The notes beneath the pieces are model-generated. The model worked only from the letters and a program-made list of their open reading frames with translations, had not been told where the DNA came from and did not search any database. Source: a virus (lineage: Duplodnaviria; Heunggongvirae; Uroviricota; Caudoviricetes). Taken from it: DNA of 14,507 nt. A program made the position numbers and the translations under genes. Shown here piece by piece: positions 3,900 through 14,507 of this stretch (the first letter of the stretch is position 1; each line of letters begins with the position of its first letter). The DNA is taken from the IMG/VR virus record IMGVR_UViG_2563366838_000011; one strand, written 5' to 3'.

Positions 3900-4733
3900 A
3901 TGAACATCGAAAAAAGCAGATTAATTTCTGAGGCCGCCCCTCATCTGAACGCCTCTCTGGGCACAATTAACGGTAATGAATTTGCCGCAATTGTCCCGGT
4001 TATTCCAGGTCACATCGGTGGGCGTGAAACCAATATTGTTAGCGCAAAAGCGTTACACAAAGCGTTGGGCGTGGGAAAAGACTTCTCTACATGGATCACT
4101 GATCGCATCTCTGAATATGACTTCACCATTGGGCACGATTACTCAGTCCATAAAACAATTTCCCCAAATTTGGGGAAAAGCCCGAATGGCACGGCTTACA
4201 GCAAGATTAAGCAGTCTGGCAGACCCGGCAAAGACTATCTGTTAAGTGTCGGAATGGCGAAAGAGCTGGCAATGATCGAACGCAATGATCAGGGTCGCGC
4301 TATCCGTCGTTATTTCATCCAGTGCGAGGAAGAATTACAGCGTAGCGTGCCTGAAATCGCCGCCCGCTATCGTCGCCAGCTAAAAGCCCGTATCAGTGCC
4401 GCAAACAACTTTAAGCCAATGTGCGATGCGCTGAATATGGCCCGTGCCGAGCAGGGGAAAACGACGCAGCAACACCACTACACAAACGAGAGCAATATGA
4501 TTTCTCGTATCGTTCTTGGAGGGCTAACTGCTAAGCAGTGGGCGCGGATAAATGGCTATTCTGGCGAACCTCGCGACCATATGAACGCAGAACAGCTTGA
4601 GCACCTCTCATATCTCGAAAGCACCAATATCACGTTAATTGATATGGGCATGGAATATGAGCAGCGCAAAGGAGAACTCACCCGCCTGTCGCAACGCTGG
4701 CTCGCCAAGCGTCTGGAGGCGGTCCATGTTTAA
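3900..4733 (+). CDS. phage antirepressor-like protein (AntA/Rha-type N-terminal domain)
   Basis: 277-aa ORF with GGAG 7 nt upstream; N-terminal motif SAKALHKALGVGKDFSTWITDRISEYDFTIGHDY resembles the conserved core of phage antirepressor (AntA/Rha) domains; assignment from motif memory only. Confidence 0.55.
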   Translation: MNIEKSRLISEAAPHLNASLGTINGNEFAAIVPVIPGHIGGRETNIVSAKALHKALGVGKDFSTWITDRISEYDFTIGHDYSVHKTISPNLGKSPNGTAYSKIKQSGRPGKDYLLSVGMAKELAMIERNDQGRAIRRYFIQCEEELQRSVPEIAARYRRQLKARISAANNFKPMCDALNMARAEQGKTTQQHHYTNESNMISRIVLGGLTAKQWARINGYSGEPRDHMNAEQLEHLSYLESTNITLIDMGMEYEQRKGELTRLSQRWLAKRLEAVHV

Positions 4734-4908
4734 GCCGACAGGAACACCACAACCTCAAAAACGCTACAAAGATGCCCACGGAGCACTCGTTACTGTCGAA
4801 AGCGTGTCTCACAACCGAGTGACGTTTTATCGCGACGGGTATCAATCGCCATGCGTACAACCGCTGGCGCGCTTCATGAAGGAGTTCGCGGAGGTTAACA
4901 AATGCTAA
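4726..4908 (+). CDS. small phage protein, DUF4222-like
   Basis: 60-aa ORF from ATG at 4726 with GGAGG 6 nt upstream, overlapping the upstream stop; pattern RYKDAHGALVTVESVSHNRVTFYRDGYQSPCVQPLARFMKEFAEV resembles small prophage proteins of the DUF4222 type (from memory). Confidence 0.5.
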   Translation: MFKPTGTPQPQKRYKDAHGALVTVESVSHNRVTFYRDGYQSPCVQPLARFMKEFAEVNKC

Positions 4909-5930
4909 CCGTCCAGAAGAAGATATTTTCACTGACTGCTATGTCGCAAAAATCCAGCAATATGACAGCAAAGTCTGGCATTAATACAGCAGATACAAGC
5001 AAAGCTTATCATTTTATGGTGGTAGGAGCGGATGCCTTAACTATGTCAGAAATTACGGTCGATGGTGTTAGCGTTGAGAAGGTCAGCGGCTGCGCCAGAG
5101 AATTTCTGGTCGTAGATGACCTGTTCTGCTCGCGTAGTGACTCCACAAAAATCTTCGTCCGCACGCGCGACGTTAACGAAATGAGCGCGATGTACTGTGC
5201 CTCTGGTTCTTCCAATAGTGAGTTTTCGGAGTCCATAAAAAAGAGCTTGCCGTTATGCGGCAACACGGTTTATGGTTATAAGGCACCTCATAAAACGGGT
5301 GCCGGGATTAGGACCCCGCAGGCAATCGAGGCGATACATGACGCGCCAGCGTCTTTTTTTGTATCGGCGCACACGCACACCTTATCAATGGTGGGCTGTA
5401 TGGGGCTGACTTCGGTCAGGCTGGTTTCCTTGATTGCCAGTAGTCCTAACCCTGTACAGTCCACCGCCAGCGAGCTTAGGACCTCCGGCGGTGGCTATAA
5501 ACCATCAATCAAGGAGGCTGCCACATGCTGGCTACTACCCCTACCCAAAAACCGCAATTTATCTGGATTATCGCCGCAGTTCGCCGCGATTGCCCGACAA
5601 TTACCGCCAAAATTCATCATATTGCTGCCGAGTCTGAACGCGATGCTCGCCGTTCTCTGGTGCGCGATCACATCTGCTTTTTTGCTGGTCGTATCCGCAT
5701 GGAGGTGGCACATGATTAAAACCTACGATGTGCATATGGATCCCCTCGAACGCACAAGCCAGATCATCACACTGACAGAAGTGATTAACGACATTCTGGT
5801 GAGCAACTCTCCCTCACGAGACGAAAGACTGAAGGCGTTACTCGCGATATTGGATCTCGCCGTTCGTGACGTTCATTTCCTGCTGGAAGGTGGACAAATG
5901 CCATGCAAAACGGGGGCAACCAATGAATAA
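4902..5930 (+). CDS. uncertain long ORF (342 codons); N-terminal about 125 codons protein-like, remainder of doubtful coding character
   Basis: ATG at 4902 overlaps the upstream stop (ATGCTAA) with GGAGG 9 nt upstream; the frame stays open for 1029 nt, but 5280-5520 translates to low-complexity S/T/P/L-rich sequence and contains hairpins and a terminator-like structure; the last 72 codons (from ATG 5712) look protein-like again. Confidence 0.3.
5340..5360 (+). terminator. terminator-like hairpin GACGC-GCCA-GCGTC followed by TTTTTTT, inside the long ORF
   Basis: 5-bp GC-rich stem, 4-nt loop, 7-T run at 5354-5360; a UUCG-tetraloop hairpin (CTGAC-TTCG-GTCAG, 5405-5418) and an 8-bp dyad (CCACCGCC...GGCGGTGG, 5461-5494) lie just downstream. 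Confidence 0.3.
5525..5719 (+). CDS. hypothetical small protein, alternative frame nested in the long ORF
   Basis: 64-aa ORF with strong SD (AAGGAGG) 7 nt upstream of ATG 5525; translation ([22 protein letters not shown]...RIRMEVAHD) is more protein-like than the overlapping frame of the long ORF. Confidence 0.35.
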   Translation: MLATTPTQKPQFIWIIAAVRRDCPTITAKIHHIAAESERDARRSLVRDHICFFAGRIRMEVAHD

Positions 5931-6117
5931 CTCAATTAATACCCCTCGCCTTACGTCCGCACTTCAATTAATCGAGCAAGCAGCGGCTGTCCTGGTTGCT
6001 GTCAGTCTTTCGGCTGAAGAAATGGACGCTGCTGATGTCGTGGATGCGATTAAAGCGTGCTCATCTTTGGTTAACGATGCCCGTGCCGAGCTGGTAATTC
6101 TTGGGGGTGAAAAATGA
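5923..6117 (+). CDS. hypothetical small protein (64 aa)
   Basis: ATG at 5923 overlapping the upstream stop (ATGAATAA); in frame with the track ORF 5866-6117; first gene of a coupled small-gene operon. Confidence 0.5.
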   Translation: MNNSINTPRLTSALQLIEQAAAVLVAVSLSAEEMDAADVVDAIKACSSLVNDARAELVILGGEK

Positions 6118-6377
6118 ATATCAACTTAATTTATCGTCATCCGTGTGAGCTGGAAATTGAATCATTGCTGGGGCGCGAAGAGCCATATCCAGACACATTC
6201 ACTCCCGCAGATTGCGCGACTGAACGGCTTACCAGAGCGCGCACAGGTCTGGTTCATGTGATGAATGAGATTGTTCCCTCGGTGGGAGGGGAACAGGCGA
6301 CAGTAATCAATAGCTGGCTACAAAAAGTTACCTCCCTGATAGATATCGGTTTAATCGATGTGGAGAGTGCGAAATGA
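6114..6377 (+). CDS. hypothetical protein (87 aa)
   Basis: ATGA start/stop overlap with the upstream gene, GGGGTG upstream; no family recognised. Confidence 0.55.
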   Translation: MNINLIYRHPCELEIESLLGREEPYPDTFTPADCATERLTRARTGLVHVMNEIVPSVGGEQATVINSWLQKVTSLIDIGLIDVESAK

Positions 6378-7542: not shown

Positions 7543-7906
7543 AAATGTAGAAATGGCGCTTAGCTCCGCAATCGGAGAGCAGGTGGCAAAGATTGCTGGT
7601 GCTGTGTGGATTCATAACCTTCATTCTACTGGTGAAGAGAAAATGGCAATTCAGACGCCAGAGGGACGCACCATTACTACATCTCTGAAGCCGTCAGATG
7701 TTTGTGATCTGATTTGCGCATTCATGTACCCAGCAATGAGGACTGTCCACGGCGATAAGTGGAAACTTGCGACAACCGCTGAATTTGATATGTGGCTAAA
7801 CAATGATGGCATGCTGACTGATTACGGAATAACCAAGTGGCAGATGCTAGTTAGCCATATCGCAAACGCTATAGACCACGTGGGGTACGGTGATGCGAAA
7901 CATTGA
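7535..7906 (+). CDS. hypothetical protein (123 aa)
   Basis: ATG at 7535 with GGGAGG upstream, overlaps the upstream stop by 8 nt and the primase start; no family recognised. Confidence 0.6.
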   Translation: MRENVEMALSSAIGEQVAKIAGAVWIHNLHSTGEEKMAIQTPEGRTITTSLKPSDVCDLICAFMYPAMRTVHGDKWKLATTAEFDMWLNNDGMLTDYGITKWQMLVSHIANAIDHVGYGDAKH

Positions 7907-10649
7907 TCTTATCCGTCAGGTTATCAGTGCGTCTGAAAACAACTGGCCTCATGTGCTGGGCTGCCTGAACATAAATGTCCCTGACTCTCCGCGCCGTCAT
8001 GCTCCCTGCCCTGCATGTGGGGGCAAAGATCGATTCCGGTTCGATGACAACGGGCGCGGTAGCTTCATCTGTAATCAGTGCGGCGCTGGTGATGGGCTGG
8101 ATTTAATTAAACGCGTAAATAACTGCGACACAACAGAGGCGGCGCTTCTTGCCGCTGATGTTCTGGGTATTGATTACCGGACAACGGAAACACCAGAAGC
8201 CACCAGCCAGAAACGGGAACAACTGGAAACCGAGCGCCAGCGACGCGAACAGGAGCGCCTGAAAAGGGCAGAGAAGGACGAACAACAAAGACGGGATACG
8301 TTTTCCCGTCAGTTTGATGACATGCGCAGAAAGGCTGTAAACGGCAAATCTGATTATCTGGTTGCGAAAGGGGTAGGTGATTTTACATTCCCCGTGTTGC
8401 CCGATGGATCTCTGTTGCTGGCGCTGGTGGATAAATCCGGCGCAGTAACAGCAGCACAGACTATTACCTCACATGGTGAAAAAAGACTCCTGACAGGTTC
8501 AGCAAAGCGAGGGGCATATCACGCCATAAACGCACCAGAAACAACACAGAGCATCTTAATCGCAGAAGGGCTGGCAACGGCATTATCTGCCCATTTAATG
8601 CGTCCAGAGGCGCTGACAGTGGCGGCGATTGATGCCGGGAACCTGTTATATGTCGCCCAGGTACTGCGGGATAAATTTCCTTCAGCACAAATCATCATTG
8701 CTGCGGATAACGACCACAGCGAAGGAAGACAAAACACGGGGAGAATAGCAGCAGAAAAAGCAGCTTTATCTGTTTCTGGATGGGTGGCATTACCCCCGAC
8801 AGATCACAAAGCAGACTGGAATGATTACCACCAAAAACACGGCATTAAATGCGCCACAGAAGCGTTCAATAAGTCAATGTACCAACCACAGGGTAATGGC
8901 GTGAAACAGGAGCCACAGACCATTGAGGGAAGCGATTTTAAGGTTATGGATACCGATCCACTGAAACCAAGAATAGAAAGCCGCGAGGATGGTATTTATT
9001 GGGTATCTCCGAGAGCTGACAGCCAGAGTGGAGAAATCATCAATAACGAAAGCTGGTTATGTTCTCCGTTAAGCGTTATCGGTACTGGCAGAGACGATAA
9101 AGACCAGTATCTCATTCTTCGCTGGCTGTCGTTTGGTTCTGAAACGCCGACAACCGCTGCCATTCCACTGGCTGATATTGGTGAACGTGAAGGATGGCGC
9201 ACACTTAAAGCTGGTGGGGTAAATGTCACGACCAAAAGCAGCCTCAGAGCAATACTGGCAGACTGGCTACAACGCAGTGGCTCTCGTGAATTGTGGCGTG
9301 TTGCTCATGCCACTGGCTGGCAATGCGGAGCGTACATCATGCCTGATGGGGAAATCATCGGAACACCTGAAAATCCTGTGCTGTTCAGCGGGAGAAGCTC
9401 AGCCGCAGCCGGATATACCGTCTCAGGGAGCGCGAAAAGCTGGCGTGATAACGTGGCGCGTCTGGCCTTTGGTAACTATTCAATGATGACCGGGATCGGC
9501 GCAGCACTGGCAGCGCCATTGATTGGGCTGGTGGGCGCTGACGGGTTCGGCATTCATTTCTATGAGCAGTCGAGCGCAGGTAAGACCACCACGGCAAACG
9601 TGGCGAGCAGCTTATACGGCAACCCTGATTTACTGCGGCTGACGTGGTACGGAACCGCGCTGGGGCTGGCAAATGAGGCCGCCGCCCACAATGACGGACT
9701 AATGCCGCTTGATGAAGTTGGTCAGGGCGCTGATCCTGTCAGCGTTTCACAGTCTGCCTATGCGTTATTTAACGGTGTAGGGAAACTGCAAGGCGCTAAA
9801 GATGGTGGAAACCGGGATCTAAAACGCTGGCGTACAGTGGCAATCAGCACCGGAGAAATGGATTTAGAAACATTTATCGCTACTTCCGGGCGAAAAACCA
9901 AAGCCGGGCAACTGGTGCGACTGCTGAATATTCCGTTGAGTAAAGCAGTACGCTTTCACGATTACCAGAACGGAAAACAGCACGCAGACGCACTGAAAGA
10001 CGCTTACCAGCATCACCACGGCGCGTCCGGGCGTGAGTGGATTAAATGGCTGGCAGACCACCAGCAACAGGCTATTAAAACCGTTCGTGACTGCGAAAGC
10101 AGATGGAGAAGCCTGATCCCATCCGATTATGGTGAGCAGGTTCACCGTGTAGCCGCGCGATTTGCCATTCTGGAGGCCGCATTGTTGTTAGGCGAGGTTG
10201 TAACAGGCTGGGATGCTCAGACATGCCGTGATGCGATACAGCACAGCTATAACGCATGGTTGCGCGAGTTCGGCACAGGTAACAAAGAGCATCAGCAGAT
10301 TATTGAACAAACGGAGGCATTTCTTAATGCCTATGGGCTTAGCCGTTTTGCACCATTTCCATACAGCCCGGCAGATTTGCCCATCAAAGATTTAGCCGGA
10401 TACCGTCAGCGTGGAGAACATGACGAAAGCCCAATGATTTTCTACACATTCCCGGCCACATTTGAAAAGGAGATCGCATGTGGTTTCAACGCAAAACAGT
10501 TTGCTGAAGTGTTGAAAAAAGCCGGGATGCTAACCCCACCAAACAGCGGTCGTGGATACCAAAGAAAATCACCACGTATTCAGGGACGACAAATAAACGT
10601 TTATGTACTCAATTACCAGCCAGGAGATTATAACTCATCTGAAGAATGA
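7893..10649 (+). CDS. primase-helicase replication protein (P4 alpha-like / PICI Pri-Rep): zinc-ribbon, TOPRIM and P-loop NTPase domains
   Basis: 918-919-aa ORF (ATG 7893, or GTG 7890 as in the track); Cys motif CPACGG...CNQCG; TOPRIM-like segment ILIAEGLATALS...IIIAADNDH; Walker A motif SSAGKTT near residue 555; iteron origin immediately downstream. Confidence 0.88.
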   Translation: MRNIDLIRQVISASENNWPHVLGCLNINVPDSPRRHAPCPACGGKDRFRFDDNGRGSFICNQCGAGDGLDLIKRVNNCDTTEAALLAADVLGIDYRTTETPEATSQKREQLETERQRREQERLKRAEKDEQQRRDTFSRQFDDMRRKAVNGKSDYLVAKGVGDFTFPVLPDGSLLLALVDKSGAVTAAQTITSHGEKRLLTGSAKRGAYHAINAPETTQSILIAEGLATALSAHLMRPEALTVAAIDAGNLLYVAQVLRDKFPSAQIIIAADNDHSEGRQNTGRIAAEKAALSVSGWVALPPTDHKADWNDYHQKHGIKCATEAFNKSMYQPQGNGVKQEPQTIEGSDFKVMDTDPLKPRIESREDGIYWVSPRADSQSGEIINNESWLCSPLSVIGTGRDDKDQYLILRWLSFGSETPTTAAIPLADIGEREGWRTLKAGGVNVTTKSSLRAILADWLQRSGSRELWRVAHATGWQCGAYIMPDGEIIGTPENPVLFSGRSSAAAGYTVSGSAKSWRDNVARLAFGNYSMMTGIGAALAAPLIGLVGADGFGIHFYEQSSAGKTTTANVASSLYGNPDLLRLTWYGTALGLANEAAAHNDGLMPLDEVGQGADPVSVSQSAYALFNGVGKLQGAKDGGNRDLKRWRTVAISTGEMDLETFIATSGRKTKAGQLVRLLNIPLSKAVRFHDYQNGKQHADALKDAYQHHHGASGREWIKWLADHQQQAIKTVRDCESRWRSLIPSDYGEQVHRVAARFAILEAALLLGEVVTGWDAQTCRDAIQHSYNAWLREFGTGNKEHQQIIEQTEAFLNAYGLSRFAPFPYSPADLPIKDLAGYRQRGEHDESPMIFYTFPATFEKEIACGFNAKQFAEVLKKAGMLTPPNSGRGYQRKSPRIQGRQINVYVLNYQPGDYNSSEE

Positions 10650-11411: not shown

Positions 11412-11873
11412 ATGGAACTAAAATTTATTGATAACCCTGTGCGATTACAGGCCTTTCTTAACGAGCCAGGCAATACCGAAAATATTGTTGAGCCGGGGCA
11501 CACGTACTACATCAAGCCTGATGCGGTATATCTCGGCATCTACGAAGGATTAGTGCTGGCTGGCGTTCATGAAGTGCGTAACTTCTGGCATAGCGTTGTT
11601 GAATGCCATGCGGTGTACGACCCCGGATTCCGTGGTGAATATGCACTGCAAGGACATCGATTATTCTGCAAATGGCTTCTCGAAAACTCACCATTCCTTA
11701 ACAGCATCACTATGGTTCCTGACACCACGAAATACGGACGGGCAATTATCCGTTTGCTTGGCGCTACCCGTGTTGGTCACCTTGATGATGCTTATATCAG
11801 ATGTGGTAAACCCGTCGGCGTAACGCTTTATCAGTTAACTCGGCAACAATATAAGGAATTCAGCGAATGTTAA
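11412..11873 (+). CDS. hypothetical phage protein (153 aa), first gene of the virion-protein-like operon
   Basis: ATG at 11412, 17 nt after the small ORF; its stop overlaps the next start (ATGTTAA); no family recognised; occupies the position of P22 gp14 in a 14-7-20-16-like gene order (positional inference only). Confidence 0.6.
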   Translation: MELKFIDNPVRLQAFLNEPGNTENIVEPGHTYYIKPDAVYLGIYEGLVLAGVHEVRNFWHSVVECHAVYDPGFRGEYALQGHRLFCKWLLENSPFLNSITMVPDTTKYGRAIIRLLGATRVGHLDDAYIRCGKPVGVTLYQLTRQQYKEFSEC

Positions 11874-12544
11874 TTACCCATATAGCTCATAAACATCTCA
11901 ATCGTGCCGTATACGAAAAAGGCGGTGATGGTGGTGCCTCTAAAGCTCAGGCGAAGGCCCAGCAGCAGGCAATTGATTTGCAGCGCGAGCAGTGGAATAC
12001 GGTGATGAATAATCTCAAGCCGTATGCAGAAGTCGGATTGCCTGCTTTACAACAACTACAAGGACTGATGACTCTGGAAGGGCAGAATAAAGCCGCGAAT
12101 GATTTCTTTGGTTCTGGTTTATATAAAACACAGGCAGATCAGGCCCGTTATCAGAACCTTGTCTCAGCAGAAGCTACCGGGGGGCTTGGCTCAACAGCTA
12201 CCAGTAACCAGTTATCTTCCATTGCGCCCATGCTTTATAACAATTGGCTTAGTGGGCAAATGCAAAATTATGGAAACCTGCTAAATGTCGGGATGAATGC
12301 GGCATCAGGGCAGGCAACGGCAGGGCAAAACTACGCCAATAATACCGGACAACTCTTGCAGGGGCTTGGCGCTATTCGTGCAGGTCAGGCGCAGCAGCCA
12401 TCCAGTCTTGCGCGTGGTATTGGTGGGGCAGCATCAGGCGCTTTAGCGGGTGCGCAACTTGGTTCCGTTGTTCCTGGAATAGGAACTGCGGCCGGCGCTA
12501 TTGGTGGTGGGCTTATTGGTCTTGTTGGGGGGCTTGGATTCTAA
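11867..12544 (+). CDS. putative phage DNA-ejection/internal virion protein with C-terminal glycine-zipper segment
   Basis: 225-aa ORF with AAGGA upstream; Gln/Asn/Ala-rich middle; C-terminus GIGGAASGALAGAQLGSVVPGIGTAAGAIGGGLIGLVGGLGF made of GxxxG/GxxxA repeats typical of membrane-inserting glycine zippers; size and position resemble P22 gp7-type ejection proteins (inference). Confidence 0.6.
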   Translation: MLITHIAHKHLNRAVYEKGGDGGASKAQAKAQQQAIDLQREQWNTVMNNLKPYAEVGLPALQQLQGLMTLEGQNKAANDFFGSGLYKTQADQARYQNLVSAEATGGLGSTATSNQLSSIAPMLYNNWLSGQMQNYGNLLNVGMNAASGQATAGQNYANNTGQLLQGLGAIRAGQAQQPSSLARGIGGAASGALAGAQLGSVVPGIGTAAGAIGGGLIGLVGGLGF

Positions 12545-13863
12545 TGGCGACATGGCAACTTGGCGGGCTGCCTAGCATGGCACCGCAAAATGATAATGCT
12601 CCTCGTTCTTCCGTTCCTCAGCCTGTGCAGTATCAGCAGCAGCCAAACGTAGGTTTAATGGCGCTACAGGGGCTAAGAGGCGTTGCTGAGATTAATCAGC
12701 AGGCGCAAATTTCCCAGCAGCTAAAAGAATATCAGGCACGGTTGGGTAGTGCGGTAGCTAATAATGATCGTGTTGGCGTGCATAAGTTAATGGCCCAGTA
12801 TCCCCAGTTTATGGCTGATTCTCAAAAACAGATGGGATTCATTGATGCTGAGCAAAATCGGCAGACCGCTGACGCTGCCATGAATCTGCGTCTTGCGTCA
12901 CAAACTGGAGATCCACTGACCATGCAGAAGGCCATTCAGCAGGCAAATCCAGTATTACAGCGATTTGGTCTTCCTGCTGAAGAGGTTTATCAGTCTTGGC
13001 AGAATGACCCACAGGAATTCAACAGAATCACTGACCTCATCCACCTCCATGCTGATCCAAATAGTTACTTTAGTGTTCAAGAGAAGCAGCAAGGGCAGAG
13101 TATTGCACAGCAGAACGCAGATACATCTGCATATAATGCTCAGGTTAATGCGGAGCAGGGTAATCGGCGGCTCGATATGGAGCAGTTCAAAGTCCTATCC
13201 GATAACCAACTACGCACGAGAGAAATGGTTCTGAAAGCACGACTTGGACGTGCTCAAAATGACATCGAGAGAGACAAGCTCAATGCTGAACTGAGCAAGG
13301 TACAGCAGGCGAAAGTGGAGAAGATGAACGATAAAATTAATACTGTTGCAGGTAATATCGACTCCTTGAACTCTGCGCTTGAAGTGGGTCATGAACTGGC
13401 GGGAATTGTAGGGAAACATCCTTCGGCCGTTACCCGTTCGCAGAACTATAACCCCCTGACGCTGGGGTTTGGATTCCTCCCTGATGTAGCAGAAGACACA
13501 CGAAGCCTACGCGCCAAAGCTGATGAATACAACCTAAAGGTTATTCTGCCTAGCCTAAAAGGTACTTTTGGCTCTAACCCAACCGAAGGGGAAAGGGCTG
13601 CCCTTATGCAATCTCAAAATGGCATTAAGTCAGCAACCAGCAATGAGGCATTTTTGCGAGAGTTGAATAAAGCGCAGGACGTAATTATTCGAATGCAGAA
13701 ACGACAGATTGCCGGGCTCGGTATTCCTGTAACCAAATCTAAGGACGAAGAAACTGATACCAAAATGCTGTTGCAGGATCCTTCACTGGTTAAGGATTAT
13801 GTGACCGCACATGGCTATCTGCCGGAAAGTTACTATCAGGCAAAACTTAAGGGATGGCAATGA
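12544..13863 (+). CDS. putative phage ejection/internal virion protein, Gln-rich coiled-coil protein (439 aa)
   Basis: start overlaps the upstream stop (TAATG); very Gln/Ala/Asn-rich with heptad-like charged stretches (LRTREMVLKARLGRAQNDIERDKLNAELSKVQQAKVEKMNDKIN); no family recognised; positional analog of P22 gp20 or T7 gp15 (inference). Confidence 0.6.
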   Translation: MATWQLGGLPSMAPQNDNAPRSSVPQPVQYQQQPNVGLMALQGLRGVAEINQQAQISQQLKEYQARLGSAVANNDRVGVHKLMAQYPQFMADSQKQMGFIDAEQNRQTADAAMNLRLASQTGDPLTMQKAIQQANPVLQRFGLPAEEVYQSWQNDPQEFNRITDLIHLHADPNSYFSVQEKQQGQSIAQQNADTSAYNAQVNAEQGNRRLDMEQFKVLSDNQLRTREMVLKARLGRAQNDIERDKLNAELSKVQQAKVEKMNDKINTVAGNIDSLNSALEVGHELAGIVGKHPSAVTRSQNYNPLTLGFGFLPDVAEDTRSLRAKADEYNLKVILPSLKGTFGSNPTEGERAALMQSQNGIKSATSNEAFLRELNKAQDVIIRMQKRQIAGLGIPVTKSKDEETDTKMLLQDPSLVKDYVTAHGYLPESYYQAKLKGWQ

Positions 13864-14370
13864 TGGCACAACTGACAGAAAAACAGAAAGCCTATTCCCG
13901 TCATCTCGATGAAAAATATGGTTTCCCATCAGGGACGATGGAAACATTAGTTGGCAATGAATCTAGTGGTAACGGAAGTGCCGAGTCACCGAAAGGAGCT
14001 AGAGGATTTGCTCAACTGATGCCCTCAGTAATGAGTGATGCTGGTTATCGTGGAACAGATCCGCGCTCACTGCCATTTGAAAAGCAAATGGATATCGCAG
14101 CAAACCATCTCAATAAAGGAATGAAGCGATTTGGTGATATAGGTATGGCATTGGCTGGGTATAATTCTGGCTATGCTCGTATTAATGCCGTAAGAAACGG
14201 TAAATCTACACTGCCAGATGAAACGGCTAATTACGTAAGTAAATTTGCAGATGCCGGAATAATCCCTGATGACAGTGAAATCTTGCAGTTTGCACAAACC
14301 AGTCAACATCGCAATCTTCAGCAGCCTGACTACTCAGAGCTTGATAAAGAAATCTCTCAGGTGGGAGATA
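13860..14370 (+). CDS. lytic transglycosylase (SLT) domain protein, N-terminal part of a phage internal virion/ejection-type protein, interrupted by an IS insertion
   Basis: ATG at 13860 (AAGGG 6 nt upstream, overlaps the upstream stop); SLT family-1 motifs in order: ES in VGNESSGN, GFAQLMP, AGYNSGY; the frame runs without a stop into the IS terminus at 14371, so the native 3' part is displaced. Confidence 0.6.
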
Positions 14371-14507
14371 TGAACCGCCCCGGGTTTCCTGGAGAGTGTT
14401 TTATCTGTGAACTCAGGCTGCCAGATCATCGTTTCCGATGGAAGCATAATAAGCTTTTTCTGCTTCTGCCGGAGGAGTATGGCCCAGCCTTTCCAGCAAT
14501 CGTCGAT
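14371..14507 (-). mobile_element. IS3-family insertion sequence terminus (IS629/IS1203-like), partial, continues beyond the window
   Basis: sequence from 14371 (TGAACCGCCCCGGGTTTCCTGGAGAGTG...) matches my recollection of the IS629 terminal inverted repeat; the minus strand encodes a typical IS3-family OrfB C-terminus. Confidence 0.7.
14413..14507 (-). CDS. IS3-family transposase OrfB, C-terminal fragment (5' end outside the window)
   Basis: minus-strand translation ends ...RRLLERLGHTPPAEAEKAYYASIGNDDLAA with stop TGA (complement of 14413-14415). Confidence 0.7.
   Translation of the reverse strand, partial: RRLLERLGHTPPAEAEKAYYASIGNDDLAA

Follow-up and report, generated by a model that had tools for sequence, protein, structure and literature searches.

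An open reading frame across the immunity RNAs of a P4-type satellite at tRNA-Thr: probable selection for openness rather than for a protein sequence

Why does a reading frame stay open for 342 codons across a stretch of DNA that also holds a terminator, stable hairpins and another gene in a different frame? The question is raised by positions 4902-5930 (plus strand) of the IMG/VR record IMGVR_UViG_2563366838_000011, a Caudoviricetes sequence of 14,507 nucleotides that was analysed as a whole and is referred to here as the window. The element is a satellite of the P4 or phage-inducible chromosomal island (PICI) type, integrated at tRNA-Thr (thrW). The region is likely to be its P4-type RNA immunity and early-control module, overlaid by an eta-type read-through frame. 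We assign 4902-5930 to the eta type because the window fits the P4 model point for point, and the property under selection is the open frame, not the amino acid sequence. This reading builds on the observed anatomy of the region, on covariation in its RNAs, on selection for an open frame and on coupling signals. Such a layout has already been described for P4, and the P4 model is left unchanged.

The 342-codon open reading frame (ORF) starts with an ATG at 4902, which overlaps the stop codon of the DUF4222 gene before it (TAA, 4906-4908) and is preceded by the Shine-Dalgarno (SD) sequence GGAGG at 4890-4894, in the arrangement GGAGG-N7-ATG. A first-pass annotation, made from the letters of the window, had noticed these coupling signals and had held the length of the frame to be improbable by chance; both observations stand, as none of 3000 dinucleotide shuffles left the whole of 4902-5930 open. 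Taken piece by piece, the fraction of open shuffles is 0.0003 for the 127-codon 5' part (4902-5282), 0.065 for the RNA stretch (5283-5522), 0.12 for the overlap with the gene icd (5526-5711) and 0.026 for 5712-5927. In RefSeq, the full frame bears the name 'ash family protein' (WP_024192463.1), and a genome search returned approximately 1000 records with sequence related to 4600-6200; full-length copies in E. coli number about 480. This interval is 100% identical in four independent complete E. coli genomes, and a sequencing error, suspected at first in the form of a frameshift, is therefore rejected. More broadly, a pseudogene or frameshift that joined formerly separate genes is extremely improbable: single-base variants of the terminator T-run do alter the frame among relatives, but the open frame is the common state there, and the fused layout recurs with different linker lengths.

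What lies beneath the middle of the frame are two RNA genes. The leader, of the isrK or P4 SeqA type, occupies 5283-5359 on the plus strand (Rfam RF01394, 63 bits versus a gathering threshold of 50, E 9e-12) and ends in an intrinsic terminator, GACGCGCCAGCGTC followed by TTTTTTT, at 5340-5360 (hairpin at 5340-5353 plus the T-run in the terminator scan). Downstream, at 5384-5471, follows a full-length match to the C4 or P4 CI-type antisense RNA (RF01695, 80.2 bits versus a gathering threshold of 45, E 9.5e-15), within which the first hairpin, CTGAC-UUCG-GUCAG, spans 5406-5419. The embedded regulatory RNAs are thus real and correspond to the Rfam families C4 and isrK. Most elements of this stretch had been picked out beforehand: the hairpin with seven T residues, which is the isrK terminator, with the end of the T-run displaced by 1 nt; the UUCG hairpin, placed 1 nt away at 5405-5418; an 8-bp dyad at 5461-5494, located exactly; and a run of S/T/P/L-rich codons (about 125-205), which corresponds to the stretch taken up by the two RNA genes and their targets. 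An analogy with P4 RNA immunity, offered then as speculation, proved correct, as the same two Rfam families match cI/seqA of P4.

The leader, the antisense RNA and the site downstream of it are connected by two sets of complementary segments. The leader carries target a1 (TTAGGA, 5308-5313), situated in the loop of its second hairpin, and target b1 (GGCAATCGAGG, 5321-5331); both covary with C4. The C4 RNA exposes segment b' (TCCTTGATTGCC, 5427-5438) in its loop and contains segment a' (TCCTAA, 5444-5449). Further downstream lie target a2 (TTAGGA, 5476-5481), in the loop of the dyad, and target b2 (CAATCAAGGAGG, 5506-5517), which covers the SD AAGGAGG (5511-5517) of icd and can form 10 Watson-Crick pairs with the C4 loop in the window. 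This a1b1/a'b'/a2b2 layout is that of P1 c4 and equals seqA/seqB/seqC of P4.

These pairings were examined in 59 distinct C4-plus-downstream sequences from related islands, with shifted pairings as controls. The C4 closing stem is 99.7% paired, with compensatory changes in 9 of its 17 pairs; hairpin 1 is 100% paired (5/5 compensatory), and hairpin 2 likewise 100%, versus 7-51% for shifted controls of the C4 stems. The dyad, formed by CCACCGCC (5461-5468) and GGCGGTGG (5487-5494), is 97.5% paired with compensatory changes in 4 of 8 pairs (shifted controls, 25-36%), and the a'/a2 pairing reaches 99.4%, with 5 of 6 pairs compensatory. The dyad joins the 3' strand of the C4 closing stem to a downstream copy of its 5' strand; since it re-uses a strand of that stem, in the transcript before processing it is alternative to the C4 fold. 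Alternative structures are also present at the homologous Gifsy-1 locus (PMC4825925).

The complementary segments vary together. In the related islands, the b' loop occurs in 25 sequence types, each accompanied by a matching b1 and b2 at fixed positions: b1 at +39 to +42 of isrK and b2 at +35/36 from the C4 end, with single loop types at +33 and +37. Mean complementarity of b' to its cognate partners is 8.6 (b1) and 10.6 (b2), versus 6.1 and 6.8 for non-cognate ones. The a' segment comes in nine types, again each with a matching a1 in the loop of the second leader hairpin and a matching a2 downstream. In all 18 of the tested related loci that keep the module, isrK and C4 are found together; the Rfam c4-a1b1 family matches two relatives. 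The module (5283-5546) is 88-91% identical to copies in Shiga toxin (Stx) and lambdoid prophages (loci L005, L136 and L137), and in Stx-converting phages the module lies upstream of a Rha-type antirepressor gene. These copies differ from the window by one base in the b' loop and have the same b2 target; because of this near-identity, satellite and prophage immunity RNAs might cross-react.

If the middle of the frame encodes RNAs, does it also encode a protein? The sole Pfam match of the 342-aa product is PF10554 (Phage_ASH), at residues 124-219 and 54.3 bits versus a gathering threshold of 26. Translated back, these residues are nucleotides 5271-5558, that is isrK, C4 and the a2/b2 targets up to the icd start, and the same profile matches the obsolete P4 'cI gene product' coding sequence (CDS), over the CI RNA. 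For these reasons Phage_ASH is essentially a conceptual translation of immunity RNAs. Variation in the matched stretch tracks base pairing and does not show protein-level selection: hairpin stems are swapped wholesale, and GNRA loops take the place of UUCG. In its middle part, the 342-codon frame does not resemble a protein. Residues 1-127 have no match in Pfam, NCBIfam or PHROG; in a search of 5.8 billion proteins, 35 of 36 matches were at least 73% identical, and all were copies from E. coli or Salmonella islands. In sister islands, the 5' third is exchanged for unrelated sequence. A functional N-terminal domain was considered and rejected, as no frame-specific constraint was found.

Downstream of the RNAs, the frame overlaps one gene and shares the codons of another. 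The first, at 5525-5719 (plus strand, 64 codons), matches the Icd/Kil-like family NCBIfam NF033153 (70.4 bits versus a cutoff of 25, E 1e-19), and its product, which can be aligned to the C-terminal end of the P4 eta/kil ORF, is a predicted Icd-like inhibitor of host cell division. The phase of this gene differs by 1 nt from that of the long ORF, which runs in the icd+1 frame. Both this ORF and its AAGGAGG had been reported exactly, together with the suggestion of overlapping genes, which is borne out here by the Icd/Kil-like gene in the other frame and by a 72-aa gene in the frame of the long ORF. This second gene occupies 5712-5930 (plus strand, 72 codons), and its ATG overlaps the icd stop (ATGATTAA). 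The Prokaryotic Genome Annotation Pipeline (PGAP) calls it alone in near-identical genomes (loci L002 and L003), and in a large protein search the largest clusters matching it consist of stand-alone 72-aa proteins, all matches being close relatives; Pfam, NCBIfam and PHROG gave no match. The Icd-like protein of the window matches PHROGs 1743 and 6928, labelled 'transcriptional repressor', a label that has probably been propagated from the P4 cI CDS.

Frame conservation, which the first-pass annotation had suggested comparing, was assessed from the share of synonymous codon differences per frame between the window and ungapped relatives. For icd (5525-5719), 59% of differences are synonymous in its own frame, versus 9% in the long-ORF frame and 5% in the third; for the 72-codon gene (5712-5930) the values are 50% versus 0% and 17%, and for DUF4222, taken as a control, 55% versus 23% and 14%. 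The 5' third (4902-5282) yields 22% in the long-ORF frame versus 14% and 27%, and its variable sites are spread over the codon positions as 20/13/17, with no frame constrained. Hence icd and the 72-aa gene are under purifying selection, each in its own frame, and within the long frame protein-like behaviour is limited to the final 72 codons. A real protein with a disordered linker, as one of the initial proposals had it, does not agree with amino acid constraint that is confined to these codons. The related view that the locus encodes a genuine 342-aa regulatory protein of the 'Ash/Bro-network' kind, with the RNA motifs as secondary features of its mRNA, can appeal to the 54-bit match to PF10554, to the RefSeq name and to the listing of Phage_ASH among Bro-network domains in PMC10111431; it is very unlikely, as the Pfam match coincides with the isrK, C4 and target stretch and recurs on the old P4 'cI protein' ORF over the CI RNA, substitutions in the matched stretch follow RNA pairing, the N-terminal 127 residues are found in close relatives only, show no codon-position bias and are replaced in sister islands, and residues 209-270 are an out-of-frame reading of a constrained gene.

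The remaining question is whether the openness itself is maintained. For the comparisons of RNAs and frames, 120 related IMG/VR loci were gathered by the exact pattern of the isrK terminator, which biases the set towards islands that share this terminator, and E. coli loci were added from the genome search. Of 97 distinct loci, 96 have no stop in the frame over an interval that begins 97 nt or more before the terminator (as a scale, the leader starts 55 nt before it) and reaches 377 nt or more beyond it; stops interrupt the two other frames within about 10-190 nt on the upstream side and 10-820 nt on the downstream side. In the single exception both RNAs are lost. The linkers between leader and C4 fall into six length classes that are not homologous to each other, and the distances from terminator to C4 (46, 73, 85, 109, 121 and 130 nt) are all of one phase; measured from isrK start to C4 start, the distances (98, 101, 125, 128, 140, 176 and 185 nt) each leave a remainder of 2 when divided by 3. 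A stop in the long frame occurs in 0 of 50 distinct linkers, compared with 24 and 23 for the two other frames. In loci with an out-of-phase icd, the gene is free of stops in the long (eta) frame in 20 of 20 distinct cases, as against 14 of 27 where that frame is irrelevant. At the upstream end, 47 of 55 distinct variants have a start codon that overlaps or adjoins the stop of a preceding ORF in the same direction, mostly with GGAGG 7-9 nt before the start. The four phage-borne copies, one from a P1-like phage, two from Stx phages and one from a lambdoid prophage, served as controls: all frames are closed by a stop within isrK or C4, no upstream ORF runs into the module, the module stands behind a strong promoter of its own, and the phase between isrK and C4 differs.

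The long frame is thus not open by chance, and its openness is kept across divergent relatives. An earlier suggestion of a non-coding RNA region whose stops are missing by chance was right about the RNAs and wrong about chance, given the frame open across relatives and the linkers in phase. The same data bear on a possible annotation artefact, according to which only the two RNAs, icd and the 72-aa gene are real and the 342-codon frame is untranslated and fortuitously open. Such an artefact is unlikely, and it would account for several facts: the first 270 codons lack amino-acid-level constraint, shuffling leaves the RNA stretch by itself open in 6.5% of cases and the icd overlap in 12%, the frame over C4 is open in the phage copies too, variants broken at the T-run exist, and PGAP splits the region otherwise in near-identical genomes. 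It does not account for a 127-codon 5' part that is open in just 0.03% of shuffles, for six non-homologous linker classes that are all in phase, with no stops in 50 linkers versus 24 and 23, or for an SD and a stop-overlapping start in 47 of 55 non-identical upstream variants; moreover, the upstream-entering frame is lacking in the phage-borne copies, and P4 eta is reported as translated and functional (PMC10111431).

Several points weigh against an eta-type module and have to be set against this evidence. The related loci share ancestry, and the counts overstate their independence; openness across C4 could in part be inherited with the conserved RNA sequence, and the phage copies, too, are stop-free in this frame from a point within isrK onward. 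The internal promoter is not called by a simple sigma-70 consensus scan. The nesting of kil in eta, a defining feature of P4, is not found in the window, because icd is read in another phase and the long frame shares its stop with the gene that follows. Among near-identical islands, locus L138 has six T residues in the terminator run and locus L008 has seven; the L138 type leads to a 155-aa product that forms a 37-member cluster, and 210-aa variants resemble a run of eight. Because such T-run variants break the frame in some near-identical islands, the intact frame is not universal, unless these variants are decayed copies or assembly errors. Finally, it is by homology that promoter activity, the ends of the RNAs and their processing, Rho dependence, and the translation and anti-termination role of the long ORF are inferred.

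Two features of the leader region call for description in their own right. The T-run itself (5354-5360 in the window) occurs as T6, T7 and probably T8 among near-identical islands, breaking or restoring the long frame; the differences in length could reflect phase variation, decay or assembly error. Many relatives (L003 and L008 at about 1960-2021; L015, L020, L033 and others) carry a 38-nt insertion between leader terminator and C4, which keeps the reading frame and contains TGTATAAT, an extended -10-like motif. From this motif, these relatives may possess a dedicated C4 promoter, which the window lacks.

The putative promoter of the leader lies within the long ORF, at 5247-5276 on the plus strand, and resembles PLE of P4: a -35 element TTGCCG (5247-5252), an 18-nt spacer and a -10 element TATGGT (5271-5276) would place the start site at about 5283. 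The geometry TTGxxx-18-TAxxxT recurs in P4 and in every island class, always equally far from the 5' end of isrK, with differing sequences. An inverted repeat, TTGCCG-TTATG-CGGCAA (5247-5263), overlaps the -35 element and the spacer, and an A-run precedes it; read on the minus strand, the repeat scores as an intrinsic terminator. At the same position, the other island classes and P4 have different sequences that are likewise self-complementary.

An eta-type module of this anatomy could act in the following manner. In the immune state, transcription would start at approximately 5283 from the promoter inside the long ORF, and most transcripts would end at the leader terminator (5340-5360), giving rise to an IsrK/SeqA-like small RNA. 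Transcripts that read through would carry the C4/CI-like RNA (5384-5471), presumably to be processed into a stable antisense RNA. In P1 and P4, the stable C4/CI RNA is cut from a longer precursor by RNase P, and in P4 polynucleotide phosphorylase (PNPase) contributes too. Its a' and b' segments would pair with a1/b1 in the leader and with a2/b2, of which b2 covers the SD of the icd/kil-like gene. Left untranslated at icd, the transcript would be exposed to premature termination (Rho-dependent in P4), and the downstream genes, including the primase at 7890, would stay off. In the activated state, transcripts from an upstream promoter would arrive via the alpA-like, AntA and DUF4222 genes, and the coupling of stop and start would feed ribosomes into the ORF at 4902. 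These ribosomes would then cross the promoter, the leader, the terminator, C4 and icd, and their translation may shield the transcript from termination, enabling immunity-insensitive expression, a role that experiments have demonstrated for P4 eta.

The island into which the module is embedded lies at proA/tRNA-Thr and has the gene order integrase, AlpA-like helix-turn-helix protein, AntA/AntB, DUF4222, long-ORF region, primase (TOPRIM-DUF927 type) and ejection genes of the P22-like gp14/7/20/16 type. The ejection genes are found at 11412-14507 of the window and continue at 20412-25580 in locus L133; the cluster comprises homologues of P22 gp14, gp7 and gp20 and a 906-aa gp16-like lytic-transglycosylase protein, and it accompanies the island at a second chromosomal site (locus L001).

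The 5' third of the long ORF contains, on the minus strand at 5050-5156, a fragment of a P22-type gene 3 (small terminase; gene nucleotides 268-374), with 99 of 107 nt matching. The fragment begins exactly at the packaging site: P22 pac is 4-25 of BK000583, and the match covers 4-110. Its pac-like 22-mer (5135-5156) is identical to P22 pac at 17 of 22 positions and, in our own reading, agrees with the published pseudo-pac expression at 16 of 17 positions; over the neighbouring 85 bp, identity is about 96%. The fragment is not maintained in the terminase reading frame. The joint occurrence of a pac-type fragment and P22-like ejection genes suggests a P22-like helper for the island. In a test of this association most loci were too short; in locus L055, ejection genes are present and the pac-type fragment is absent, and the 5' region that L055 has instead gave no phage match. 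Given L055, the general idea that the 5' ends of eta frames are captured pac sites is unsupported.

A more specific proposal, that in this lineage the read-through frame has been re-phased, skipping Kil/Icd and leading ribosomes in frame into the 72-aa gene, with its 5' third running over a captured P22-type pac region of the other strand, appears rather improbable. If it were true, the run of seven T residues could be a length-variable on/off switch for immunity-insensitive expression, and a satellite of the P4/PICI type could be packaged by P22-like podophages via a pac site located in a translated ORF.

The main practical value of the eta-type reading is the correction of annotations; as to the model, it extends that of P4 to a thrW island with a different arrangement of frames. 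Hundreds of E. coli and Salmonella genomes annotate the stretch as 'ash family protein', sister islands label it as an over-long 'Icd-like protein', and in the RefSeq record of P4 (NC_001609, locus L012, 8168-8584) the CI RNA region is still a 137-aa 'transcriptional repressor' CDS. PF10554 and the 'transcriptional repressor' PHROG families matched by the Icd-like gene may inherit the same error. A fitting annotation would list both RNA genes, one small gene of toxin-like character and a frame whose sole apparent job is to be translated through, and it would stop the inference of functions from a protein that probably has none. In addition, the 25 b-types and nine a-types of co-varying RNA/target triplets provide a ready catalogue of satellite immunity specificities.

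How does the locus compare with known systems? The closest fit to the proposed module is the immunity region of P4, whose minus strand matches isrK at 8615-8692, the seqA leader, and C4 at 8420-8507, the CI RNA; a 214-codon ORF spans both and ends in Icd-like sequence. Shared with P4 are (i) the two Rfam families in identical order, with the geometry of the leader-proximal promoter; (ii) the three-way complementarity among leader, antisense RNA and a site over the SD of the next gene; (iii) an Icd/Kil-like gene as this next gene, with the primase downstream; and (iv) a long ORF across the RNAs, with a start that lies before the internal promoter and is coupled to the preceding gene. According to Forti et al. 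1999, as summarised in PMC10111431, a constitutive promoter lies inside eta, in which CI and seqA are embedded; the same summary describes a transcript from within eta that ends early through CI/seqA interactions and is processed to CI, Kil as a truncated Eta, and a translation of eta from late transcripts that prevents premature termination. The differences concern mainly the frames: in P4, kil is the in-frame end of eta, whereas here icd is one base off and the frame continues into the 72-aa gene. Both arrangements are common among 54 Icd-carrying loci, 24 of which have the out-of-phase layout of the window and 30 the P4-like one, in which the eta stop is the icd stop. Furthermore, the gap between leader and C4 is 24 nt here and 107 nt in P4, three extra genes stand between the alpA-like gene and the long ORF, and the 5' third is unrelated to P4, with the P22 pac-type fragment on its other strand.

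The immI region of P1 and P7 (c4-icd-ant) likewise has a C4-family RNA with a' and b', targets a1/b1 upstream and a2/b2 over the icd ribosome-binding site. The specificity types of P1 and P7 differ by co-varying bases, and the 25 b-types and nine a-types found here are of the same kind. In contrast to the window, the P1-like phage copy has no ORF entering the module from upstream, and in P1 icd is followed by the antirepressor, whereas the AntA-type gene of the island is located upstream.

At the isrK-orf45-anrP locus of Gifsy-1, IsrK has been recognised as a structural homolog of P4 SeqA, with a processed CI-like RNA downstream (PMC4825925). The likeness to the window comprises a leader of the isrK family that has a terminator of its own and is read through into the message behind it, the CI-like RNA (STnc1160) and a short frame that is translated across it. 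In the window, ATGs in the frame of the long ORF stand at 5388-5390 and 5400-5402 (+106 and +118 of the leader transcript); they correspond to the orf45 AUGs at +107 and +119 (PMC4825925) and have no obvious SD before them in the window. Gifsy-1 differs in that IsrK activates in trans a 45-codon upstream ORF coupled to the antirepressor (PMC4825925), and its module resides in a prophage without a frame entering from upstream.

The overall organisation of the island, finally, is that of the Gram-negative PICIs and their Bro zone (PMC10111431), with four zones made up of integrase and AlpA, AntA/'Ash' with C4/isrK, the primase and captured helper late genes. There, Phage_ASH is taken as a protein domain of the Bro network; here, it coincides with RNA genes.

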